Virus record (IMG/VR): IMGVR_UViG_3300036783_000349
Span: 1 to 34,659 of that record
Source of the DNA: a virus
Taxonomy: Duplodnaviria; Caudoviricetes
Strand: one strand, 5' to 3'
Length of the DNA stretch: 34,659 bases
Under the pieces are notes generated by a model. It saw nothing but the letters and a program-made list of their open reading frames with translations. It was not told the origin of the DNA and made no database searches. A program made the position numbers and the translations under genes. Below are positions 688 to 33,888 of this stretch, piece after piece; the stretch's first letter is position 1; each line of letters opens with the position of its first letter.

Positions 688-2367
688 GTGAATATAAACG
701 TCGCAGATTTGTTAAACGGGAATTACATCCTGTTATTATTTGTGGTGCTGGCCTTAGGGTTGTGCCTGGGTAAATTACGCCTTGGTTCAATCCAACTGGG
801 TAATTCCATTGGTGTTTTAGTGGTCTCTTTATTATTGGGACAACAGCACTTCGCCATTAACACCGACGCCCTGAATCTCGGCTTTATGCTGTTCATTTTC
901 TGCGTCGGCGTGGAAGCCGGACCCAACTTTTTCTCTATTTTCTTCCGCGACGGTAAAAACTACCTGATGCTCGCCCTGGTGATGGTCGGCAGCGCCATGC
1001 TGCTGGCTCTGGGCCTCGGTAAGCTGTTCGGCTGGGACATTGGCCTCACCGCCGGGATGCTGGCAGGCTCCATGACCTCCACGCCGGTATTGGTCGGCGC
1101 GGGCGATACGTTGCGCCACTCCGGCATGTCGGGCGATACGCTCGCAGCCTCACTGGATCATCTGAGCCTTGGCTACGCTCTGACCTATCTGATTGGTCTG
1201 GTAAGCCTGATAATCGGCGCGCGCTATCTGCCGAAGCTACAGCATCAGGATCTGCAAACCAGCGCCCAGCAAATCGCCCGCGAACGCGGCCTGGACACGG
1301 ACGCCACCCGCAAAGTTTATCTGCCGGTGATTCGCGCCTACCGCGTGGGTTCCGAGCTGGTGGCCTGGGCAGACGGTAAAAATCTGCGCGAGCTGGGAAT
1401 TTATCGCCAGACGGGCTGCTATATCGAACGTATTCGCCGCAACGGCATTCTGGCGAACCCCGACGGCGACGCCGTGCTGCAAAAAGGAGATGAAATCTCC
1501 CTGGTCGGCTACCCCGATGCCCATTCACGCCTCGACCCAAGCTTCCGCAACGGTAAAGAAGTCTTCGACCGCGACCTGCTGGATATGCGCATCGTCACCG
1601 AAGAAATCGTGGTCAAAAATCACAATGCCGTGGGCCGCCGCCTGGGCCAGCTCAAGCTGACCGATCACGGCTGCTTCCTCAACCGCGTGATTCGCAGCCA
1701 GATTGAAATGCCCATCGACGATAACATCGTGCTCAATAAGGGCGACGTGTTGCAGGTCAGCGGCGATGCAAGACGCGTGAAAACAGTGGCCGAACGCATT
1801 GGCTTTATCTCGATTCACAGCCAGATAACCGACCTGCTCGCCTTCTGCGCCTTCTTTATCATCGGCCTGATGATCGGCATGATCACCTTCCAGTTCAGCT
1901 CGTTCAGCTTCGGCGTCGGCAACGCGGCGGGCCTGCTGTTTGCGGGGATCATGCTCGGCTTCCTGCGCGCCAACCACCCGACCTTCGGCTATATCCCGCA
2001 GGGCGCGCTGAACATGGTGAAAGAATTTGGCCTGATGGTCTTTATGGCAGGCGTTGGTCTGAGCGCGGGCAGCGGCATTGGCAGCGTCGGCGCGGTCGGC
2101 GGACAAATGCTGGTTGCCGGCCTGATTGTCAGCCTCGTGCCGGTCATCATCTGCTTCCTGTTTGGCGCCTACGTGCTGCGCATGAACCGCGCTCTGCTCT
2201 TCGGAGCCATGATGGGCGCCCGCACCTGCGCGCCGGCCATGGAAATCATCAGCGACGTCTCGCGCAGCAACATTCCGGCCCTCGGCTACGCGGGCACCTA
2301 CGCGATAGCTAACGTGCTGTTAACGCTGGCAGGTACGCTGATAGTGATCGTATGGCCCGGTTTGTGA
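688..2367 (+). CDS. ybjL: Putative transporter YbjL (AAE aspartate:alanine exchanger family, two TrkA-C domains)
   Basis: 559 aa, GTG start, N-terminus [29 protein letters not shown]; two membrane repeats flank a soluble region; synteny with ybjM and rybB. Confidence 0.93.
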
Positions 2368-9646: not shown

Positions 9647-10732
9647 TTAGGCTGTCGTTTTTAAGTTATTCTGCGCTTTGCTGGTCGATAAACGCTTACT
9701 CATCCTGATGATTGGCTTTTCAATACCGATATGGCACAGCCAGGATAGAATCAGCAATACCCCCAGCAGTCCCAGACCAGATAAAATGAGTTGTTGATCG
9801 GTCACACCCGGCGTAACAACAAGCTTTCTGAAATAAAGAAATGAAACCCCATGCAGTAAATATAACGGATAGGATACATCGCCTAAAAATTTTAACAGTA
9901 GATGCAATGGTTTAATGCTTTGCAAATCGCCAATAAGGAAGAATGCTGAACACAGCCCTAACGTTAAAAGGCTAAACACGATCTTTGTCGAACCTGTAAT
10001 AATATTAATCTGATCACCACTTACGGGGTAACACACAAAGGCTGTGAACAATAACAATGCAGTCAGGACCATTATTTTTCTATTTTGTCCAACAAGCGGC
10101 AAAAGCCACTTTGCAGCAAGTACGCCGAGGGAAAAGTAATACACCTGATTCATTGGGTCAATATAGATTGCCCATTGCTTAGAGAGCGTGGTCGTTGGGT
10201 CTATAAAATAAAATGCGCAATAAACGAGTAAAGCCGCTGATGCAGAAAGTAGCAAAACGGACAATACTTTATTGTTTGCCATCAAAATAAAGAGAGGGAA
10301 CAGTAAGTAAAACACAACCTCATTGCCAATGGACCAGCCGCCCATAATCATATATTCAGTGGGATTTGTAAGACCGAAAATAAGAAATATATTCTGAATA
10401 TATTTCCAGCCATCTATAACAAAGCCGTTATAATACTGAAAGCAAAAAATAGTATAAACAATAAGCGGAACCCAATAGACAGGAGCGAGCCTTAAAAATC
10501 GCCGTAATATAAATACACCATACTGAGGGACAGTCCATTTATCTTTACGATGCGCAAGATAAAGTGCCATTCCACTGATAACATAAAATGCCGTCACAGC
10601 ATAAATCCCCAAACGTCCTAAAATGGTGCTGGAATCTGTCATCCCCCAAGTGGTGAACTGCGTCGAAAAGTGGTAAATCACAATGCTCAGTGACATCAAA
10701 CCACGTAAATAGTCAATTGATTGAATGCGCAT
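9647..10732 (-). CDS. Membrane O-acyltransferase (acyltransferase-3/OafA-Oac family), moron
   Basis: 'IDYLRG...VIYH', 'FYVISG', 'RRFLRLAPVY', 'WSIGNEVVFY' and 'LGDVSYPLYLLH' motifs; about 10 TM segments; AT-rich; ATG at 10732 preferred over TTG at 10738. Confidence 0.9.
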   Translation of the reverse strand: MRIQSIDYLRGLMSLSIVIYHFSTQFTTWGMTDSSTILGRLGIYAVTAFYVISGMALYLAHRKDKWTVPQYGVFILRRFLRLAPVYWVPLIVYTIFCFQYYNGFVIDGWKYIQNIFLIFGLTNPTEYMIMGGWSIGNEVVFYLLFPLFILMANNKVLSVLLLSASAALLVYCAFYFIDPTTTLSKQWAIYIDPMNQVYYFSLGVLAAKWLLPLVGQNRKIMVLTALLLFTAFVCYPVSGDQINIITGSTKIVFSLLTLGLCSAFFLIGDLQSIKPLHLLLKFLGDVSYPLYLLHGVSFLYFRKLVVTPGVTDQQLILSGLGLLGVLLILSWLCHIGIEKPIIRMSKRLSTSKAQNNLKTTA

Positions 10733-10792
10733 AGCCAAGTCTCAAGGTGCTCTATGCGCATAATCTACCAAATCAGGGGTTAAAAGCCCAAC

Positions 10793-15044: not shown

Positions 15045-15848
15045 TTAACGATTAAGTGCCGTTCTCAACAAATCGATATTGAAATTAATATCAACGTCTA
15101 CATAAGTGTGAATTCCTCTCGTTCCGCCACCCATTCTAGATCCACCAATTTGGTAGCTAACTACGTGATTCAGACCTCCATCTATAATCTTGAAAATTTG
15201 ATCTGCAATTACTTGTTCGGTGCTTGTTTTAATCGTGAAGTTTTTCAATGTTGCTATTCCTACTTGCTGCTTTAAATTTTTTTTATTTTCAGCATCAACC
15301 CCAAATAGCTCAAGTATCGTTGTTACCTTATCCACGAGCATATAATCTTTCTCAAACTCAACGACCTGATCCGCTAATGCATCAAAATCAGTTTTTAACC
15401 GCCCCCGGCCACCGACTGCCATCTGAAGAGATTTGAACGCGAACTCCAATTTTGAGGATAAATTTGCTTCAATAGAATTCAAATTACAGATAGGTTGAGG
15501 CAAATCTTTGAAGTTCATACCTGAGTGACAAAAAGGGAGTGCAGGGATTTCTATGTCTCCCTTCCGTTGGCTGATCGTATTTCTAATCCAAACGGCGCCT
15601 AGTTCGAAGCTAATCCAGCTTCTTTGTACTGATATAGGACTAATTAAGTAGATCGCGGCTATACAATCAACAAGTCCATCTTCAATTACTTTCAGAAAAT
15701 TTTGACCAGCTTTAATCGTTTCGCCATCAGAAGAAACAAATACCTTAACAAATCCAGAAAATTCATCCTCAATTGCATCTTTGATGATTTTTGCTAGTTT
15801 TTTTTCTTCCGTAATATGAGATAAAAAAATCAATTTATCAGACATCAC
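15045..15848 (-). CDS. TIR-domain protein (moron between S and V)
   Basis: 'IFLSH..EEKKLA', 'VFVSS...IKAGQNF', 'LISPISVQRSWISFELG' with the catalytic-position Glu; AT-rich; GGGAG SD upstream. Confidence 0.85.
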   Translation of the reverse strand: MMSDKLIFLSHITEEKKLAKIIKDAIEDEFSGFVKVFVSSDGETIKAGQNFLKVIEDGLVDCIAAIYLISPISVQRSWISFELGAVWIRNTISQRKGDIEIPALPFCHSGMNFKDLPQPICNLNSIEANLSSKLEFAFKSLQMAVGGRGRLKTDFDALADQVVEFEKDYMLVDKVTTILELFGVDAENKKNLKQQVGIATLKNFTIKTSTEQVIADQIFKIIDGGLNHVVSYQIGGSRMGGGTRGIHTYVDVDINFNIDLLRTALNR

Positions 15849-21537: not shown

Positions 21538-23304
21538 ATGAACACCACACTGACTCCCGCAGATCTCGATCCCCGCCGGCAGGCCATGATGCTGTACTTT
21601 CAGGGATACCGCGTAGCCCGCATTGCTGAAATGCTGGGCGAGAAAGTTGCAACCGTACACAGCTGGAAGAAGCGCGACAAGTGGGGCGAATATGGCCCGC
21701 TGGATCAGATGCAGCTCACCACTGCCGCGCGTTATTGCCAGCTCATCATGAAGGAGCAGAAAGAGGGGAAAGACTTCAAAGAGATTGACCTGCTGGCGCG
21801 TCAGTCAGAACGTCATGCCCGCATCGGCAAATTTAACGACGGCGGCAACGAGGCCGACCTTAATCCCAACGTATCAAACCGCAACAAAGGCCCGCGCAAG
21901 CCACCGGAAAAGAACGTATTCAGCGATGACCAGACCGAAAAGCTGCAGGAGATTTTCCATAGCTCGATGTTCGCCTATCAGCGCCACTGGTGGGAGGCAG
22001 GAAACCGTCACCGCATCCGTAACCTGCTCAAGTCCCGCCAGATTGGCGCAACCTTCTTCTTTGCCCGTGAGGCGCTGATTGACGCCATTACCACCGGGCG
22101 TAACCAGATTTTCCTTTCAGCCAGTAAGGCCCAGGCGCACGTCTTCAAGCAGTACATTATCGACTTCGCCAAAGAGGTTGATGTGGAGCTGAAAGGCGAT
22201 CCGATGGTGCTGCCCAACGGCGCAACGCTCTATTTCCTGGGCACCAACGCCCGCACGGCGCAGAGCTACCACGGCAACCTGTACCTGGATGAATATTTCT
22301 GGATCCCGAAATTCCAGGAGCTGCGCAAAGTGGCCTCCGGCATGGCAATTCATAAGCGCTGGCGGCAGACCTACTTTTCCACCCCGTCGAGCCTGACACA
22401 CAGCGCCTATCCGTTCTGGTCAGGCGCGCTATTCAACCGAGGCCGGGCCAAAGCCGATAAGGTGGACATTGACCTCACCCACAGCGGCCTGGCTCCCGGC
22501 CTGCTCTGCCCGGACGGGCAATACCGCCAGATTGTCACCGTAGAAGACGCGGTGCGCGGCGGCTGTAACCTGTTCGACCTCGACCAGCTGCGTATGGAGT
22601 ACAGCCCGGACGAATATCAGAACCTGCTGATGTGCGAATTTATCGACGATCTCGCGTCGGTATTCCCGCTCAGCGAGCTGCAGGCATGCATGGTGGACAG
22701 CTGGGAAGTGTGGGCAGATTTTCAGGCCCTGGCCCTGCGCCCGTTTGGCTGGCGTGAAGTCTGGATCGGCTATGACCCGGCGAAGGGCACGCAGAACGGT
22801 GACAGCGCCGGATGCGTGGTCATGGCTCCACCTGCCGTGCCGGGCGGCAAGTTCCGCATTCTGGAGCGCCACCAGTGGCGCGGCATGGACTTCCGCGCTC
22901 AGGCCGACGCCATCAAGCAACTCACTCAGCAGTACAACGTGACCTATATCGGCATCGACTCAACGGGCGTGGGCCACGGCGTGTATGAGAACGTGAAAGC
23001 GTTCTTCCCGGCCGTGCGCGAATTCGTCTACAACCCGAACGTAAAAAACGCCCTGGTACTCAAGGCCTACGACATTATCAGCCACCGCCGCCTGGAGTTC
23101 GACGCCGGGCACACCGACATTGCGCAGTCATTCATGGCAATCCGCCGGGCCACCACCGCCAGCGGCAATCGCCCAACCTACGAAGCCAGCCGCAGCGAAG
23201 AAGCCAGCCACGCAGATTTGGCCTGGGCAACGATGCACGCGCTGTTTAACGAACCGCTGCAGGGCGAAGCCGCCAATACCAGCAACATTGTGGAGATTTT
23301 TTAA
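21538..23304 (+). CDS. P: Terminase large subunit gpP
   Basis: N-terminal HTH, Walker A 'KSRQIGAT', Walker B 'LYLDE', nuclease motifs 'IGYDP' and 'HADLAWA'. Confidence 0.96.
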   Translation: MNTTLTPADLDPRRQAMMLYFQGYRVARIAEMLGEKVATVHSWKKRDKWGEYGPLDQMQLTTAARYCQLIMKEQKEGKDFKEIDLLARQSERHARIGKFNDGGNEADLNPNVSNRNKGPRKPPEKNVFSDDQTEKLQEIFHSSMFAYQRHWWEAGNRHRIRNLLKSRQIGATFFFAREALIDAITTGRNQIFLSASKAQAHVFKQYIIDFAKEVDVELKGDPMVLPNGATLYFLGTNARTAQSYHGNLYLDEYFWIPKFQELRKVASGMAIHKRWRQTYFSTPSSLTHSAYPFWSGALFNRGRAKADKVDIDLTHSGLAPGLLCPDGQYRQIVTVEDAVRGGCNLFDLDQLRMEYSPDEYQNLLMCEFIDDLASVFPLSELQACMVDSWEVWADFQALALRPFGWREVWIGYDPAKGTQNGDSAGCVVMAPPAVPGGKFRILERHQWRGMDFRAQADAIKQLTQQYNVTYIGIDSTGVGHGVYENVKAFFPAVREFVYNPNVKNALVLKAYDIISHRRLEFDAGHTDIAQSFMAIRRATTASGNRPTYEASRSEEASHADLAWATMHALFNEPLQGEAANTSNIVEIF

Positions 23305-24011
23305 TGAAACCAACGCTTATCAATCTGTTTTCAGATGCCTGTTTTTATAGCCGCGCAACTCCGTTTAATTACCAGATGAGCTGGAATGCAGGCGCTCGCG
23401 GCACACGCAGGGTGCTGACCAAAATGCGCCAGTGTGGCGCTGATTGGTTTTTCTCACTTGAGGCGCTGTCTGACGCGTTAACCACCGGACGAAACCAAAT
23501 TTTCCTGGGATGCGGTGACGATCATTCGCAGGTTAACAGGACCTATATCAACGCGCTGCTGTTGAACGCGGGACCACAACTGCAAATCCATGTATTGCGT
23601 ATGACAGACCACTATCTGGAACTGAGCAACGGCGCATTCATCTACTTTATCGACCCGGACAGCCACTGCGCTGCGCTCTATGGAAACGTCTACGTGTCAG
23701 AGTATGCCTGGGCAGACTCGCCCAAAAATGTTATTGCGCTTGCCAGGGCGCTATCCATGAACGCCCGCTATCACACGACCTACTACACCACCCCCAGCCA
23801 CAACCCGGAAGCATGGCGGGAATACAAAAAGCTGCTCGCCAGCAACAACACAGCCAGCCTTATTTTTACCGCTGAGGATGCAGCAGCATCAGGAGCACCA
23901 CTCTTTGATGATGATTGGCTGGGTCAAATGAAAAAAGAAACATCGGCTAAGAACTGGAAAATGCTGTTTATGTGCGAATGGCCACAGGCTGACAAGGAGC
24001 TGGGGGCATGA
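23304..24011 (+). CDS. Terminase-ATPase-like paralog (degenerate motifs, no nuclease domain)
   Basis: Aligns by eye to the ATPase region of gpP (DALTTGRNQIFL vs DAITTGRNQIFL; LFMCEW vs LLMCEF); overlaps both P and Q. Confidence 0.85.
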   Translation: MKPTLINLFSDACFYSRATPFNYQMSWNAGARGTRRVLTKMRQCGADWFFSLEALSDALTTGRNQIFLGCGDDHSQVNRTYINALLLNAGPQLQIHVLRMTDHYLELSNGAFIYFIDPDSHCAALYGNVYVSEYAWADSPKNVIALARALSMNARYHTTYYTTPSHNPEAWREYKKLLASNNTASLIFTAEDAAASGAPLFDDDWLGQMKKETSAKNWKMLFMCEWPQADKELGA

Positions 24012-25103: not shown

Positions 25104-26354
25104 TTATCGCCATTTAAGATAGAAGGCAAAGAATGGATCAGTAATGTGCAACTTACGGTCTTCTTTATCCCAATCAATTACAGGAGTTGACGCTTCTTCA
25201 GTTGCAGCAATTTTTGCCATTTTCTCTATCACACGCGTTACTTCGTGGGCTTGTGGTGGAGAGTCTTGTACCAATTCACGTATAGCTGCCCTTAATTCTT
25301 CATACTGGATACTTTGCATTCCAGGTTTCATATGCGACAAAGCATATAATACAACTTTATATATATCTACCTCCTCTCCATTTTTGAGTTTCCTCGGGAT
25401 TCTATCCGTACGCTGATTCGGCCCGCTAGCCAACTTATCGAATACTATTTTACCTGTTGATTCTGCAACACGTTTAAAAATATCGTCGTCTAAATTATTA
25501 ATATTCAATTCAGATTGCAATGTTTCCTTAACATCATTTGCCAAACAGATAGCCTTACAAAATTCTTGCATTAAATGAGGGCTTCCCAATGATTCGTGAG
25601 CAAGTCTATCAGCAACTGACTCACTAACATTTATGTTCAAAAGCGGAAAACCTATTTTTGCAATTTGTTTTAACTCATCCATTTCCCATGAAGGCATTGA
25701 AATGTTTTCTAGGCGACCCGTAATTTCTTTTTCAACTTTTACTGCATCATATCTTCGATGTGGTATTGCTATCAATACAACTGGAACACCATCAAAAACC
25801 AATGGTTTTACTGCTCTAATAAAGCTCCCTTGTAGTTCACGCTCAAGGTAATGAAAATCATCGATAATTAGAGAAGCTTTGGTTGTAGAAAGTACTTTTA
25901 ATGCAGAACTTTTCGCTGTGGTCGTGCGCGATTTTTTATTCCCACTTGACGAGCCATCAGTCTGAACTACACCTGCTTCACCTGTACCTTTAACAAGTAA
26001 TGCACTAGCAGTCCCTGACACCTTACCACTAATAGCAAGAGCGCTATTCTCTCCAGAATTAACTTCCACATTATGATAGCCGTTTAGTTTATCTAACACC
26101 TGCTCCCAAATATCATTTTCTGATGTAATACTCCCACCATCAATCCATATAACGTTATCGTCAAGGGCGGGAAATACCATTCTTGTAATTACAGTTTTAC
26201 CTGACTTAGTTTGTCCGGTTAATGTTACTAGCTTGCATAAATTATCTTTAACACTTTCCAGCTTTCCATGAACCTCACCTTCAGAGCGTTCAACATATGT
26301 CAATTTCGGCATACCGCCAGGCACAAAAACTTGTGAAGCTCGTTGTTTATCCAT
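25104..26354 (-). CDS. P-loop ATPase (AAA+/STAND-like) with probable C-terminal winged helix, moron
   Basis: Walker A GQTKSGKT, Walker B LIIDDFH, 'GSPHLMQ' helical-domain motif, C-terminal 'ITDPFFAFYL'; AT-rich; ATG at 26354 (TTG alternative at 26360). Confidence 0.8.
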   Translation of the reverse strand: MDKQRASQVFVPGGMPKLTYVERSEGEVHGKLESVKDNLCKLVTLTGQTKSGKTVITRMVFPALDDNVIWIDGGSITSENDIWEQVLDKLNGYHNVEVNSGENSALAISGKVSGTASALLVKGTGEAGVVQTDGSSSGNKKSRTTTAKSSALKVLSTTKASLIIDDFHYLERELQGSFIRAVKPLVFDGVPVVLIAIPHRRYDAVKVEKEITGRLENISMPSWEMDELKQIAKIGFPLLNINVSESVADRLAHESLGSPHLMQEFCKAICLANDVKETLQSELNINNLDDDIFKRVAESTGKIVFDKLASGPNQRTDRIPRKLKNGEEVDIYKVVLYALSHMKPGMQSIQYEELRAAIRELVQDSPPQAHEVTRVIEKMAKIAATEEASTPVIDWDKEDRKLHITDPFFAFYLKWR

Positions 26355-26467
26355 GAACAAGTCCCATCAATATAGTTATACGATTTATCAATCTCATAAA
26401 GAACTGAAGCAGCTCAGTTAGTCCTTTAACATTACCTTAATTCATTCTTCAAGACCACTAGCGCGCG

Positions 26468-26486
26468 CTCGTATCCCCGCCACGCC
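26468..26486 (-). other. cos site (19 nt cohesive-end sequence)
   Basis: GGCGTGGCGGGGATACGAG closely resembles P2/186 cos (GGCGWGGCGGGGAAAGCAY); followed by TGCATG/CATGCA repeats to about 26610. Confidence 0.8.
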
Positions 26487-26668
26487 TGCGCGCTTTATGG
26501 AGTGGTTTTCATGCAGGTGCATGACGGGCCAGAAGGTACGCCAGCGCTGGCGGTTCTGACCCGTTGCGATCCTTTTGCGATCATGCGAATTCATGCACCA
26601 TACGCATGCACTGCCTTCGTATAACTTGCGACGCCATTTGGGAGGGAGTTTTCCCAGGCAAAAATTCG

Positions 26669-26854
26669 CTAATGCGTGCTTTCATCCTGCCCTACTCCGT
26701 ATACATTTAGCCTGGTCACCAGATCGCTCGTCAGTTCTGACAACCATGAAATGGCAACTTCCTTATCATCATCGCTGCAGTCTGAGCTGGCGACCAGTCG
26801 GGCCATAAGTTCGATACGCTGTAGTGCAAGTGACTCCATGAACAAATCGTTCAC
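26669..26854 (-). CDS. tum: Tum-like SOS-induced antirepressor
   Basis: 61 aa acidic ORF with a strong SD, downstream of A and directly behind a LexA box, matching the position of tum in 186/Fels-2. Confidence 0.65.
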   Translation of the reverse strand: MNDLFMESLALQRIELMARLVASSDCSDDDKEVAISWLSELTSDLVTRLNVYGVGQDESTH

Positions 26855-26969: not shown

Positions 26970-29315
26970 TCAGTACCATTGACGCCATTTGTCATCTTCC
27001 TGCAGGCGCTGGTTTCGATAGAACAAGCGTAGCCCGGCCCCAGATGGGATGCTGCCACCGCGCAGAAGGAGATCCACTTCCGCTTCACTGGCATCAAAGC
27101 CCCTGGACCGCAGTTCCACTTCGAGCTACAGCCGTTGGTGCTCCGTAATTTCCTGTTTGTACCCTTTCCGGCGCTTCGGTTTTACCAGGCGTAGCCGTGC
27201 CGTCAGCTCCCGCAATTCCTTTTTGCTCATATTTTCGAAGTCCGGCAGCGGCGTGGCCTCATCACTGCAGGATAGATCCCCCCCTGATATGTTTAAATTT
27301 TCTACAGGGGGACAGTTATTGCCACGAGTCCAAGGGGCGCGAGCGCCCTGGTCGGCTGTCGCCTCCTGAACGTCAACGGCCTTACGAACCTTTTTCCACT
27401 TCACCGCATGCGTGCAGATGCGGCCCTGCGTTAACGGGGACCAGACACCATAAATACGAATGCCGTGATCGCCGTAGGTGCTCGGCTCGTCGCTAAGCTC
27501 GTATGCCGTTCTGATTAGGTGATGTTTGCGGGGGACCAGCACACCGCCCTGCTTCGTGATGTAGGTTGCGAAGCAGCCCGCATCGGCAGCCGCCAGTACT
27601 GCATCCAGACGGGTTTCAGCCAGAACTGGCGCGCCGGCCTTCTTATCGCCTTGCTGTCTCGCAGCCTGACCGGCCAGCAATCGCAGCTCTCGGTATGCCT
27701 GCCGCCCCGGAATACCGAAGAATCGGAACTGCTGAACGCGGTGCAGGGAAGACCAGGCTGTGACGTGCTCCGCGCTGTCGCGCAGTGATCTGCCCGTTTC
27801 CTTGCTGACTTCTTTAGCCAGCCCGCGCCCGTCTATGTTCTTGCTGATGTATTTAGCGATATAGCTAGTCGGCGTGCCTTTGCGCGGATTGATCAACTCG
27901 GACTTAAAACGTGGGCCGGTATTTTTTCCCAGCTCCTCGCGGTCTTCGCGGATGGCGAATTTACGCAGCAATGCAGTGATAGAGCGGCGTTCTTTTTTGC
28001 GCATGAAACATAAAAGGTGCCAGTGTACGGTGCCGTCATGGTGTGGCTCGGCAACGCGAACGCCATACCAACGCAGTCCGGCCTTGTGCATGGCTTTGCG
28101 GAAGGCGGCAAATGTATCAACCAGATAATTACTGCTCTGCCGGACCGTTTCGCTGGTCCACTTCGGATTGGGCCTGCCGTTGTTGAGGGTGGCGTGGAAG
28201 CGTGACGGGCAGGTGATGGTATAGAAAACGGCACAGTCACTGCGCATTTCCGCGATAAGCTCCAACCCCTTAACGCAGGCCATCATTTCATTGCGACGGT
28301 GCGCGGGATTACTGCTGCTGGCGTTCACCACATCTTCCATATCCAGCGTATCACCGGCCTCATTGACCAGCTCATGCGAACGGAAGAACTCCAGTGACTT
28401 GCGACGCTGCTCGCGCTTATGGATCACAGCTTCATAGCTGACATACGGCGAAGCTTTTTTGTTAACCAGACAGACGGCGCGCAGCTGCTCTTCCCGCCAC
28501 TCACATCGCATCTGCCACAGCTTGCGATACCACCAGTTCGCGCAAAGCATGCGTGCCAGCGAACCCGGAATAAGGTCATAAGGCACGGGCTTACGGCGGC
28601 GTTTCTTGCGGCGAAGCTGCTCAAAAGCGGGCGGGATGACGTCTAAACGCATGGCTTCCGCAGCAACCCTTTCCCATGCCTGGCGGATTTCTTCCGGCTT
28701 GATGTCATCCGTAACAAACAGCTCACCGCAGGTCGAATCCAGACACATGCTCATGTGTGCGGCAACCAGCGTAGAAAGGCGTTTTACCTGGCCCTGGCTC
28801 ATTTCAGGCAGAACCAGCAACCCCTCCAGACCGTCATGGCTTGCCATGAACCGGAAAGAGGCAGACACCTGACTTTCACGTACACGCTCCAGTCGCTCAA
28901 GACACGGCCTGATGGTTTCGCGCAGATAGCGGGAGTAAGCCTTTGCCCGGCCCAGGCCATGAAAGAATTTAATGCGTTCCAGAAGAGGTTTGCTGACGTG
29001 TGCGGGTTCGGCGCTGACGTTAGCCAAAATGACTAAATCAGGATTAAAACGCTGTTGCTCACGCGCCATTCTGGCGCGGCTGCTTAGCTGTTCCTGTTCC
29101 ATTTCACGCTGAACAGGATCACGGGATTCATTGAAGAAATAGCGCTCCCAGACCTCATCACTCAGCGCCTCACGACGGAGCTGTTCCTGCTCGTTGTCGG
29201 CAGCGTACAGAGTGATCAGGTTTGAAAGCACAGAACCCGGCGCAACCTCCGCCGGGTCCAGATAGGGGTTTATCGCTTTTCTGCCTGCATTCCAGGAATA
29301 AGGATAGTTACTCAT
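26970..29315 (-). CDS. A: Replication endonuclease gpA, interrupted by in-frame TAG at 27126-27128
   Basis: HUH motif '[11 protein letters not shown]' and two-Tyr motif 'YIAKYISK'; the frame continues for 51 codons after the TAG to TGA at 26970-26972. Confidence 0.9.
27312..27340 (-). other. Probable rolling-circle ori within gene A
   Basis: GCGCCCCTTGGACTCGTGGCAATAACTGT resembles the P2 ori (GCGCCTCGGAGTCCTGTCAATAACTGT) at the equivalent position. Confidence 0.65.
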
Positions 29316-30142
29316 GCGATCCCCAGCTCAAGCTGGAAAGGCTGTAATCCTTTCGCTACCCATTCAGTAATAGATTGAGGCTGGACCGCTTCTATAGCGC
29401 CTTTAAGAATGGCGCAGCGATTTTTCAGGATGGTCGCTGTGAGTTCCTCTTCTGACAGGCCACGTGAATATTCAGCCTCACGTATTGCACGAGTCAGCTC
29501 AGGATATTTGGTATTAAATTTGGGGACATTGCAGGCAAGGTTTGTGCTGTCGGCCGTCGCCAGCGGATAGTTACCCAATACACGCCCATCGAGCATCCGC
29601 AGCCCATAAACCTGTGTCTGGAAATCGAACTTGCAGTAAATGGTTTCAAAAGCATCCTGCATTCGCCGGTGCCAGCGCTCAGTCCTAATCGTCGCGTACT
29701 CACCAGAGGACCCGAAGCAAACACGGGGCCACTCACGACACAGTTCAACCAAGCGGTGAATTGATTCATGGAAATGCCAGACTGGAACAGCCTTATCTCG
29801 CAGCATGGCAGGGACCTGTCGAATAAGAGCATCGTTATCTTTTTCACCCCCCTCAACTACATCAGGAATGACATAAAAGCTCACTTTGGGGTGGTGATAA
29901 AACGCCAAAAGCCACTGGTAAAACTTTGACCAGTCAATCACCAGATCACGTTTCCATGCTGAAAACGCGCCATTATCAATCGCGACAAGAGAAGCGAATT
30001 TTATGGAGGCATCAATCTGATCTGGCCGCGCATAGGAAACAAAAGCACCGGCTCCGCTCACCGCAATACGATGAACGTCACCGGCGCTCCCCCAGACAGG
30101 AGTACCGTGAAAATGGTGTACCGTCCGCGCAAGAACAGTCAT
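29312..30142 (-). CDS. TGT/DpdA-like TIM-barrel protein (putative base-exchange enzyme)
   Basis: Ordered motifs DNGAFS, PDVV, PVWH, FGSSG, (Y)GLRM, ADST; ATGA overlap with gene A. Confidence 0.55.
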
Positions 30143-30198
30143 GCACGAATCTCAAAAATCGTGCTGTTGCTGTAAGCCAGGACGATGTGAGTTTTCAT
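30139..30198 (-). CDS. 19-codon mini-ORF ([19 protein letters not shown]), possible gene remnant
   Basis: ATGA overlaps at both ends link the TraR-type gene to the TGT-like gene. Confidence 0.45.
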   Translation of the reverse strand: MKTHIVLAYSNSTIFEIRA

Positions 30199-30422
30199 AC
30201 GACTCCACCGTGATAGTGCTTCCCTTTCAGTTCTGCGATTTCCTGACACGTCACGCAACACTGCACGCCTGGAATAGCTTGTCTGCGAGCTGTTGGAATT
30301 GGCGCGTCACAGTCGATGCAAAGAACGCGGGCAATGCCCGGTTTTCTAGTGCGAGCGTTCTGAATATGGCGCTGCAGATTTTCTTCGACGCGCTGCTGTA
30401 CGAGATCCATGGAATCAGCCAT
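30195..30422 (-). CDS. TraR/DksA C4 zinc-finger protein (P2 orf82-like)
   Basis: MADSMDLVQQR...CIDCDAPIPTARR...CCVTCQ. Confidence 0.9.
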   Translation of the reverse strand: MADSMDLVQQRVEENLQRHIQNARTRKPGIARVLCIDCDAPIPTARRQAIPGVQCCVTCQEIAELKGKHYHGGVV

Positions 30423-30658
30423 CAGTGCCAGTCCCCGCGTGATTCAGCTTCATAACGGGCAACTTCACGGCGCAACAATTCCGCTGCCTCTATTCCGGTC
30501 ATTTCCTTCTGTAAGATGTGGAGCGCAAGCGCCTCCAAGCGGATGGAAACGGCAAAGGCACAGCTTTTACGCTCATCCAGACGGGTCTCGTTAAACAGCT
30601 GGAATAAACCGGCATCATCAGGTCCGGTTTTTGTGGTTCGGGTTTCACTATTTCGCAT
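30422..30658 (-). CDS. Conserved P2-family early protein (DUF2732-like)
   Basis: 'RLEALALHI...EAAELLR' motif and position upstream of the TraR-type gene. Confidence 0.7.
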   Translation of the reverse strand: MRNSETRTTKTGPDDAGLFQLFNETRLDERKSCAFAVSIRLEALALHILQKEMTGIEAAELLRREVARYEAESRGDWH

Positions 30659-32700: not shown

Positions 32701-33888
32701 ATGGAAAATTCATACTTTGACAAACATGAAATTAAAAAAATCATCGGACAAGTTCGACGCAGTAGCATTTTAAGAGATTCAAATCTATATCAGGGAAGTC
32801 TTTATCTAGATCTTGTAAAGACGTTCGAGAAATATCAAAACTTTATTCTTGATTGTGATGATAGCGGCCCTTTATCACAGAATTTAAAAAATAATCACAC
32901 TCTTATCTGTGAATTATGCAATGCATTATTAGAGGTTATGCAGGCTTTTTTAACAGGCGATGTACGTAGAGCATACAATATTTTCAGCGATATGCTTGAT
33001 AGACAAGAAGTAATCGATTGTTTTAACTTTATATCTAAACCTCTTGGTGAATGGGCCAGGCCAGAAAGACCACTATACCGCGTAAGGGCCAGTAGTAAAC
33101 CATTAGAATACAGAGAGGATATTTTTCACATACCCTTTAACATGAGACATTTGGTACAAACCCAGCGCTATTCTATTGCAGGTTTGCCATGTTTATATTT
33201 AGGAACATCATTATATATATGCTGGCAAGAGGTGGGCAAACCTGATTTTGATAAGCTATACGTTTCAGCATTATATGCAACCTCTGCAGCTAAAGAGTTA
33301 AACATTCTAAACTTTGCTTATAACTTAAATACTTTGGCAGATTATAGGTTTCTTAACGCGTTGAATGATGAATATAAAAACGATGGTGATATAAATAATA
33401 TACTATTATCCCACCTAATCCTCTGGCCTTTAGTTGCATCATGTAGTTATATAAAAAACAATGAATCTGGGGCGTTCAATCAAGAATATATAATCCCTAA
33501 TCTACTGATGCAAAAAATTGCCTCAGAGAGATTAAACAACATATCAGGCATAGCATATCTTTCAACAAAGTCAGTGAGAAATACGAATGCCAACCTAGGG
33601 GTAAATATAATTATACCCCCAAAATCCGATTTTGAAGAAATGCAAAGTAATAAATACTGTTCAATCTTATCTAATAGTTTTTTAATGACTACGCCTATTT
33701 CATGGCAACTATTAGAGGCATTAACCTACGATTATAAAGTTAGTAATGGCTTATCCCTAACGAAGAAAATTGAAAATATTCATGAAACTTTAATGGATGA
33801 TTATCATTTCACAACATTTTATAAACTTGAAGAAAAACTTAAGGATAAATTCCAGTTCAGAGCCTTAAATTCTTCTCGCATTGTTTAA
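32701..33888 (+). CDS. RES-domain protein (moron between cI and int)
   Basis: 'LYRVR', 'QRYSIAGLPCLYLG', 'WQE', 'EYIIPNLL' and 'GIAYLS' supply the R-E-S residues; very AT-rich. Confidence 0.8.
   Translation: MENSYFDKHEIKKIIGQVRRSSILRDSNLYQGSLYLDLVKTFEKYQNFILDCDDSGPLSQNLKNNHTLICELCNALLEVMQAFLTGDVRRAYNIFSDMLDRQEVIDCFNFISKPLGEWARPERPLYRVRASSKPLEYREDIFHIPFNMRHLVQTQRYSIAGLPCLYLGTSLYICWQEVGKPDFDKLYVSALYATSAAKELNILNFAYNLNTLADYRFLNALNDEYKNDGDINNILLSHLILWPLVASCSYIKNNESGAFNQEYIIPNLLMQKIASERLNNISGIAYLSTKSVRNTNANLGVNIIIPPKSDFEEMQSNKYCSILSNSFLMTTPISWQLLEALTYDYKVSNGLSLTKKIENIHETLMDDYHFTTFYKLEEKLKDKFQFRALNSSRIV

Follow-up and report, generated by a model that had tools for sequence, protein, structure and literature searches.

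A stand-alone phage DpdA beside replication gene A of a P2-like prophage, from a family whose carriers are enriched for host Dpd restriction-modification

The Dpd restriction-modification system of bacteria marks its own DNA with low-level dADG, a deazaguanine nucleoside (<0.1% of G; PMC10516641), in a CxGCxG-type motif; the mark blocks PvuII, and unmarked DNA is restricted (PMC10164549, PMC10516641). Its DpdA (PDB 7UI4, 423 residues) has a CxCxxC zinc site, needs DpdB and ATP, and works with DpdC, which turns dPreQ0 into dADG independently of DpdA/B (PMC10164549, PMC10516641). Phages have DpdA too. In Escherichia phage CAjan, which also has folE/queCDE, the enzyme (DpdA1) modifies about 30% of G; its knockout abolishes dPreQ0, and the dense dPreQ0 protects the phage (PMC6884629). 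A further 76 phages carry DpdA alone, and the purpose of this singleton family has been called an open question (PMC6884629, PMC8306585). What would a phage gain from such a gene by itself? Here we analyse one member, a 276-residue open reading frame (ORF) on the minus strand at 29312-30142 of a 34,659-nucleotide stretch of viral DNA (IMG/VR record IMGVR_UViG_3300036783_000349, positions 1 to 34,659; the whole stretch is called the window). What is new is that bacteria carrying a singleton phage DpdA are enriched for host Dpd. The gene encodes a compact, zinc-free DpdA of tRNA-guanine transglycosylase (TGT) fold; we see about an even chance that its intact relatives forge the host Dpd self-mark on phage DNA, and the window copy is probably impaired. 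Slightly more tentative is the proposal that gamma-proteobacterial phages carry the singleton DpdA clade as a dedicated one-gene, DpdB-independent counter-defence, the deazaguanine counterpart of orphan Dam.

The family itself is known and the gene is a catalogued type of stand-alone phage DpdA. SEN1, HK106, SPN3UB and 7-11 are listed as DpdA-only in Supplementary Data 1 of Hutinet 2019 (PMC6884629), which proposed that singleton DpdA uses host preQ0 and that the singleton cluster may have diverged in function; SEN1 gp38 is also named in the MED16 paper, where the SEN1/SW9 type forms the DpdA/TGT_1 cluster (PMC8306585). Protein identity to the window copy is 77% for SEN1 gp38, 52.8% for MED16 gp38, 39% for HK106 and 36% for 7-11 gp32. 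With SEN1 gp38 already published as DpdA from the same slot upstream of A, the description of the gene as an orphan in the original prediction does not hold. SEN1 gp38 and SW9 gp39 (group 3 singletons, 77-78% identity) share the overlap with gene A and likewise sit in P2-like temperate phages without precursor genes, whereas our prophage is Fels-2/SEN8-like rather than an Eganvirus and our allele has Tyr for His at residue 179 (H179Y). Pantoea phage MED16 gp38 and Salmonella phage 7-11 gp32 have the same motifs with the His, and virion DNA of these phages has sparse dADG: 354 per 10^6 nucleotides (0.13% of G) in MED16 (PMC8306585) and 50 per 10^6 in 7-11 (PMC6884629), which convert to about 33 and about 9 marks per genome. 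Both phages are lytic, the gene is not beside the replication initiator, and the mark was measured there for the whole phage. MED16 dADG had no noticeable effect on the restriction enzymes tested; 10 of 12 cut the DNA and the two failures were Dam-sensitive (PMC8306585). Base and level in these phages match the Dpd self-mark. The portions available of the papers on the singleton group leave its function open and do not link it to host Dpd, nor was a link between phage DpdA and host Dpd found in the literature searched, PMC12707154 included, as far as the available text of it goes; reviews and supplements may already hint at one.

How well does the window protein fit this family? It matches PHROG 887 ('queuine tRNA-ribosyltransferase') at E 2e-88, and an AlphaFold2 (AF2) model built from 121 sequences is a TIM barrel with a pLDDT (predicted local distance difference test) of 94.7. 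The top four VIA matches of the model, all from the TGT superfamily, are Cap10 (Z 15.2), archaeal TGT (14.2), bacterial TGT (14.1) and bacterial DpdA (13.8), at a root-mean-square deviation of 3.9-4.5 over 232-242 aligned residues, with unrelated barrels close behind at 13.3. Foldseek agrees weakly with a TGT-type fold, again with Cap10 as top match, and in the viral structure library the model matches phage TGT-like proteins. Sharper evidence than the fold is the profile match to CAjan DpdA, the enzyme with the dPreQ0 knockout phenotype (hhalign probability 98.6, E 1e-15, 172 columns, with D56, D94, H123 and D198 aligned). The TGT/DpdA fold and family, called by eye in the original prediction, are borne out by PHROG 887, the AF2 model with its VIA matches and the CAjan profile, and the structure and profile comparison that it proposed did find a TGT-fold match.

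The neighbouring families fit less well. Searches of Pfam, NCBIfam, PADLOC and PDB sequences gave no TGT match for the protein or its profile, and the profile matches to host Tgt and to bacterial DpdA were non-significant. Neither the protein nor its 121 relatives have a match to PF01702 or another Pfam family, there is no zinc subdomain, and the CxCxxC site occurs in 0 of 121 sequences (protein and relatives). Bacterial DpdA shares the fold, the catalytic layout and a low-level dADG end product; the window protein has no NF041059 or PADLOC match, and its gene neighbours are dksA and A, not dpdB/dpdC. Cap10 of type IV CBASS (PDB 9NTN), which has an Asp/His catalytic pair and binds an ADG-type base and, in a defence operon, a deazaguanylated CD-NTase, is 9-13% identical and alike in fold alone; the slot survey described below found no CD-NTase/Cap9 operon. 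With the singleton phage DpdA family the protein shares the barrel, the catalytic Asp/Asp/Asp/His, the grouping with published members and the lack of precursor genes. CAjan DpdA, zinc-free by sequence like ours, has equivalents of D56, D94, H123 and D198 at about 19% identity, and GG and FG where our family has GSSG and LR.

Among 120 relatives of 27-94% identity, D56 is conserved in 119 and D94, H123 and D198 in all. The residue roles in bacterial DpdA (acid/base, two base readers and nucleophile) are described in PMC10164549; transferred from there, D56 would be the acid/base and D198 would form the covalent intermediate. The discussion of that paper gives GGh as the consensus of preQ0 enzymes. 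The window family has GSSG in its place and Arg182 for the Gly of preQ0 enzymes, two differences that could shift the choice of base. The motifs run in the order DNGAFS (56-61), PD (93-94), PVWH (120-123), GSSG (144-147), YGL (179-181) and ADST (197-200), and lie as follows:

29312..30142, minus strand: stand-alone phage DpdA, zinc-free TGT-type TIM barrel (PHROG 887, AF2 model, structural matches, CAjan profile)
29960..29977, minus strand: DNGAFS, with D56 the predicted general acid/base (DpdA D95) and F60 predicted to stack on the base (DpdA F99), from the alignment to CAjan DSGAFS
29861..29863, minus strand: D94, predicted to read the Watson-Crick edge (DpdA D130); present in all 120 relatives and in the CAjan alignment
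29774..29776, minus strand: H123 of PVWH, predicted to read the base (DpdA H181); unchanged here, present in all 120 relatives and aligned with CAjan CFHF
29702..29713, minus strand: GSSG loop after strand 6, predicted pocket for the 7-substituent, differing from the GGh consensus of preQ0 enzymes
29606..29608, minus strand: Y179 (His in every relative), predicted position of a hydrogen-bond donor to the nucleophile Asp, aligned with the CAjan His of KLH
29549..29551, minus strand: D198 of ADST, predicted nucleophile (DpdA D256), invariant in 120 of 120, aligned with CAjan CDSSS

The ORF has 2,738 homologues of nearly its own length (533 representatives after clustering at 50%). Among 9 alleles, dN/dS is 0.01-0.18 in those pairs for which it could be computed; the gene is genuine, conserved and under strong purifying selection.

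Is the gene connected with host Dpd? The nearest named genome that carries it, a Lelliottia, has a 98% identical allele with His at 179 together with queC, queE and tgt, and on another contig a dpdC-A-B-D-K-J island; this island prompted a co-occurrence test. Among 401 one-per-species genomes from the family of that genome, bacterial dpdA occurs in 9, the phage gene in 15 and both in 4, so that the phage gene is present in 4 of 9 Dpd-positive species representatives and in 11 of 392 others (3 of 8 against 11 of 392 without the centre genome, p 0.002). A second genome draw (n=367) was nested within the first and is no replication. The four double-positive species span P2-type, lambdoid-type and Dam-fusion forms of the phage gene; in them dpdC adjoins dpdA, and a long distance separates the dpd island from the phage gene. 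In E. coli, where 159 of 5,426 complete genomes (2.9%) have bacterial dpdA, 20 of the 59 listed carriers of the P2-type gene (of 107) are Dpd-positive, as are 17 of the 60 listed carriers (of 79) of the HK106-type gene, which comes from a different, lambdoid phage family; four genomes belong to both sets. Dpd-positive carriers span all three dpdA allele groups (8/7/5 for the P2 type, 6/5/6 for the HK106 type). The control was a sister prophage that joins dam directly to A, with many copies at similar chromosome positions, and here 1 of 113 listed genomes (of about 1,100) is Dpd-positive. Against this control Fisher p is 7e-10 (P2-type) and 4e-8 (HK106-type), values that are inflated because the E. 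coli genomes were not dereplicated by lineage and so are not independent; one bacterial dpdA subtype was searched. A 90-base fragment (row H195) was left out of the P2-type list, and two partial rows (H254-H255) and 5 duplicates out of the controls. Carriers of singleton phage DpdA are about tenfold enriched for host Dpd, and this is what makes it likely that the enzyme shields phage DNA from Dpd. Split HK106-type alleles (rows H546-H553 and H555), possibly from few clones, were in Dpd-positive genomes in 0 of the 9 cases listed. At one locus (G001:C22:128000-147999), SspBCD-E lies directly beside dpdC-A-B-D-K-J in a defence island.

The level of the phage mark can also be set against a motif. 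The density of CAGCTG predicts 56 dADG per 10^6 for 7-11, where 50 were measured, and 824 for MED16, where 354 were measured, a two-point fit that is suggestive. Avoidance of CAGCTG was tried and rejected as a signature of carriers: SEN1, SW9 and SI22 have 0-1 sites, but so do the gene-less 186 (1) and PsP3 (0). In the fetched loci, a redundant set with differing centres, carriers show 0.67-fold CAGCTG, but the same holds for CTGCAG. Site avoidance runs opposite ways and genus-wide: Eganviruses (SEN1, 186, PsP3, SW9 and SI22) are almost without CAGCTG (0-1 per 30 kb), whereas SEN8 and the window have 24-25 and no GTCGAC.

How might one phage gene forge a host mark? We infer a route in which the enzyme would act on freshly replicated phage DNA, replacing guanine at a sparse motif by a 7-deazaguanine that the host has made, with D198 forming the covalent intermediate and D56 acting as acid/base. 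The inserted base would be preQ0, which host DpdC would then hydrate, or else ADG itself, the QueC intermediate, and the target motif would overlap the Dpd motif CxGCxG. Co-expression with A in lytic replication would mark progeny DNA, and marked DNA would then survive in, or enter, Dpd-positive cells. Such a route would explain the sparse and seemingly useless dADG of MED16 and 7-11, a mark too sparse to block common restriction enzymes; it would also open a way into the uncharacterised restriction step of Dpd and offer a compact one-gene tool with which deazaguanine could be placed at a chosen motif. The window gene is ordinary in itself; the host association is what gives the family a testable functional lead. 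The likely reliance on host precursors, proposed earlier, agrees with the presence of queC and queE in 5 of 5 host genomes of relatives. It agrees also with the window, where, as had been noted, no ORF matches folE/queCDE; three (4-390, 688-2367 and 15045-15848) have no assignment, and none of these has a Que/FolE match. In Flyfo siphovirus Tbat1_6 (L003:3525-4783) a gene for Vut_1, a YhhQ-type preQ0 transporter, lies directly upstream of the DpdA homologue; a YhhQ/Vut_1 neighbour was seen in this one phage only, and no transporter survey was made.

The slot between the DksA-like gene and gene A bears on what the enzyme acts on. Its landmarks are:

29312..29315, minus strand: ATGA, in which the TGA of the dpdA ORF overlaps the ATG of gene A, a general trait of the slot (from the sequence)
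29233..29259, minus strand: hairpin near the start of gene A that looks like a terminator and, by consensus match only, like 186 tM1
27126..29315, minus strand: replication gene A, ending at a premature TAG (27126-27128) (PF05840)
30195..30422, minus strand: gene for a DksA-like zinc-finger protein, which bounds the variable modification slot on its upstream side (domain and PHROG matches, slot survey)

The ORF, its six motifs in the stated order and the ATGA overlap are all as first described. According to the record of phage 186, A appears to be translated only if orf84, another gene found in this slot, is translated through to its end; coupling to A is for this reason a property of the slot rather than of dpdA alone. 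Of 67 viral loci with the gene, which are redundant and of which one was incomplete and left out, 54 of the 66 with a complete slot have dam upstream and 12 are without dam. The 80 loci found through gene A hold dam alone (45), nothing (8), ASCH and dam (8), dam and a PAPS-reductase-like gene (6), a PAPS-reductase-like gene alone (3), dam and dpdA (3), an exonuclease and dam (2), dam and a C5 methylase (1) or ASCH alone (1), with 3 incomplete; dpdA is absent from 74 of the 77 complete slots. In E. coli the annotation under most listed matches of the P2-type gene includes dam. In two independent cases the DpdA domain is fused to an adenine methylase (L175:1456-3189 and L185:1492-3210; PF02086, PF05869), and a further sequence, P0062, is a partial Dam-DpdA chimera. 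The slot upstream of A is a stack of optional DNA-modification genes, and the repeated pairing with adenine methylases, together with the two fusions, makes DNA the likely substrate of DpdA. Phage orphan Dam occupies the same slot, usually as the adjacent gene, and would follow the same logic of forging a host self-mark; its fold and chemistry are unrelated, and the two genes co-occur rather than alternate. The best reading is that singleton DpdA is a second orphan modifier, active alongside Dam and no replacement for it. PAPS-reductase-like genes, with ASCH/DUF3850 genes and a C5 methylase, share the slot (loci L081, L093, L098 and L117, and phage 186 orf84); they are likely further, uncharacterised DNA-modification enzymes.

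Several observations weigh against the forging of a Dpd mark. The dADG was measured in whole phages, and MED16 and 7-11 were grown on unsequenced hosts, so that a Dpd system of the host could have made the published mark. The bacterial enzyme depends on DpdB and ATP, whereas the window gene has no partner gene next to it. The dpdA searched for is absent from 39 of 59 P2-type and 43 of 60 HK106-type carriers, about two thirds; E. coli clonality is uncontrolled and the lambdoid set has no matched control; and gene-less sister prophages are not significantly depleted in Dpd-positive hosts (1 of 113 against 2.9%, p 0.15). As to the motif, that of Dpd is wider than CAGCTG (PMC10164549, discussion), the CAGCTG fit rests on two phages, and the window keeps 25 such sites. 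The Dpd-negative carriers, the gene-less prophages not significantly excluded from Dpd hosts and the uncontrolled clonality would also suit a sparse 7-deazaguanine mark that serves the phage internally or protects it in some other way (replication, packaging or another nuclease), the link with Dpd then reflecting dependence on DpdC or precursors, shared lineage or ecology; that DpdC makes dADG from dPreQ0 without DpdA/B suits it as well. We regard this account as possible but rather unlikely, given that two unrelated phage types both show the enrichment, which is seen across species too, that it is lacking in sister prophages of which many lie at similar chromosome positions, and that the gene is dispensable for P2-like replication, to judge from the gene-A slots without it.

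Could Dpd be countered without any marking of DNA? The protein might be a decoy or inhibitor of the Dpd complex, or a Cap10-like enzyme acting on protein, with the dADG of MED16 and 7-11 made by their hosts. Cap10 is the top structural match, the zinc insertion that bacterial DpdA uses for DNA binding (PMC10164549) is missing, and the dADG levels are low in phages grown on unsequenced hosts. The Z of Cap10 is, however, within about 1.4 of the TGT and DpdA matches, the sole significant profile match is the CAjan DNA enzyme, itself zinc-free, the full catalytic set is invariant, fusions to DNA methylases exist and neither CD-NTase nor Cap9 is a neighbour, all of which makes this explanation improbable. 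Least probable is the model of the original prediction, a Dam substitute giving general protection from restriction enzymes. It draws on the 12 of 66 loci without dam, the window being a further case, on dpdA as the sole modifier in the slot of the window and 11 other loci, and on the protection of CAjan by dense dPreQ0 (PMC6884629). The proposed survey of genes alternating in the slot found dpdA residing with dam rather than excluding it, 8 of the 80 gene-A slots hold neither, and with dam co-present in 54 of 66 slots and two fusions besides, dpdA is not a substitute for Dam; the substitute model is largely refuted by this co-occurrence. General restriction protection fares no better, given the enzymes that cut MED16 DNA in PMC8306585; roughly 33 marks in the MED16 genome and 9 in that of 7-11 are not enough to shield DNA broadly.

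Is the window copy itself still active? It has four private amino-acid changes, G66D, L124F, H179Y and K232E. The codon of Tyr179 is TAT, with CAT/CAC in relatives, and position 179 is one of five columns invariant across the 120 relatives of 27-94% identity; His stands there in 120 of 120 top matches, in 120 of 120 of that partly overlapping set, in 14 of 14 other cluster members and in 77 of 77 fetched loci. The Tyr is no assembly slip, since over 28800-30600 the window is identical to a second assembly (run X1, word depth 64.5) that may come from the same sample. By analogy with the Asp/His pair of Cap10 (D248/H226), H179 probably donates the hydrogen bond by which the nucleophile Asp is held; in QTRT1 the donor is a Tyr (10.1101/2025.04.06.647259). 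Host Tgt reads KPRYLMG at the analogous strand, an equivalence to Y179 by motif only, as a six-way MAFFT alignment misplaces Tgt and the Tgt profile match is non-significant. With Tyr in the same donor role in tRNA-TGTs, loss of activity is likely but not certain. The earlier remark that Tyr lies where such enzymes usually have His calls for caution for this reason, and the base-reading His (H123) is intact.

Other signs of decay lie nearby. Private changes number 4 nonsynonymous to 2 synonymous, against 3 to 14 on two sister branches (p 0.045); L124F was rejected as damage, because CAjan and one relative have Phe there. In gene A the reading frame ends at codon 730, so that the product lacks about 52 residues found in relatives, at a site that is a sense codon in 131 of 131 covering loci (Gln in 125) and that lies outside the region covered by the second assembly. 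Virion genes matching SEN8 show no stops, and the prophage may be replication-defective although these genes look intact. We consider it fairly likely that the window copy is impaired, as had been suggested from the Tyr, and it is probably decaying; loss of dpdA can be selected, for example as escape from Dag glycosylases (10.1101/2025.10.29.685425). Full activity, with Tyr standing in for His as in tRNA-TGTs and the other changes neutral, is doubtful though far from fanciful: the KPRYLMG of host TGT (motif mapping only), the Phe of CAjan at position 124, the intact frame and a dN/dS to the nearest relatives still at 0.10-0.18 speak for it, whereas the His of every relative examined, the skew of private changes and the truncation of A in the same prophage speak against it. 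The frame may persist only because translation of A is coupled to it.

The window otherwise reads as a complete-looking Fels-2/SEN8-like P2 prophage that stops within the integrase, and most of its ORFs match SEN8 genes or PHROG families. A promoter scan of the region gave matches at chance level, terminator-like hairpins numbered 4 against 3.1 in shuffled sequence, and no notable repeats were found in the window. After the tum-like ORF there is no dinI match (26440-26670), unlike SEN8. Two low-GC genes look like cargo: a 418-residue AAA-family ATPase between portal and A (25104-26360, minus strand; PADLOC PDC-S59, E 7e-32), at a known P2 hotspot, and a 395-residue gene between cI and int (32701-33888, plus strand; PHROG 7835, function unknown), a candidate defence moron whose product we take, by eye, to be RES-domain-like. 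PHROG proteins of unknown function are also encoded at 688-2367 (plus strand, 559 residues, PHROG 4489) and 15045-15848 (minus strand, 267 residues, PHROG 29177). A 235-residue second terminase-like ORF lies between gpP and portal (23304-24011, plus strand; Terminase_6N, E 2e-12) and is 28% identical to gpP residues 63-368, and an O-acetyltransferase moron sits beside the tail fibre genes (9647-10738, minus strand).

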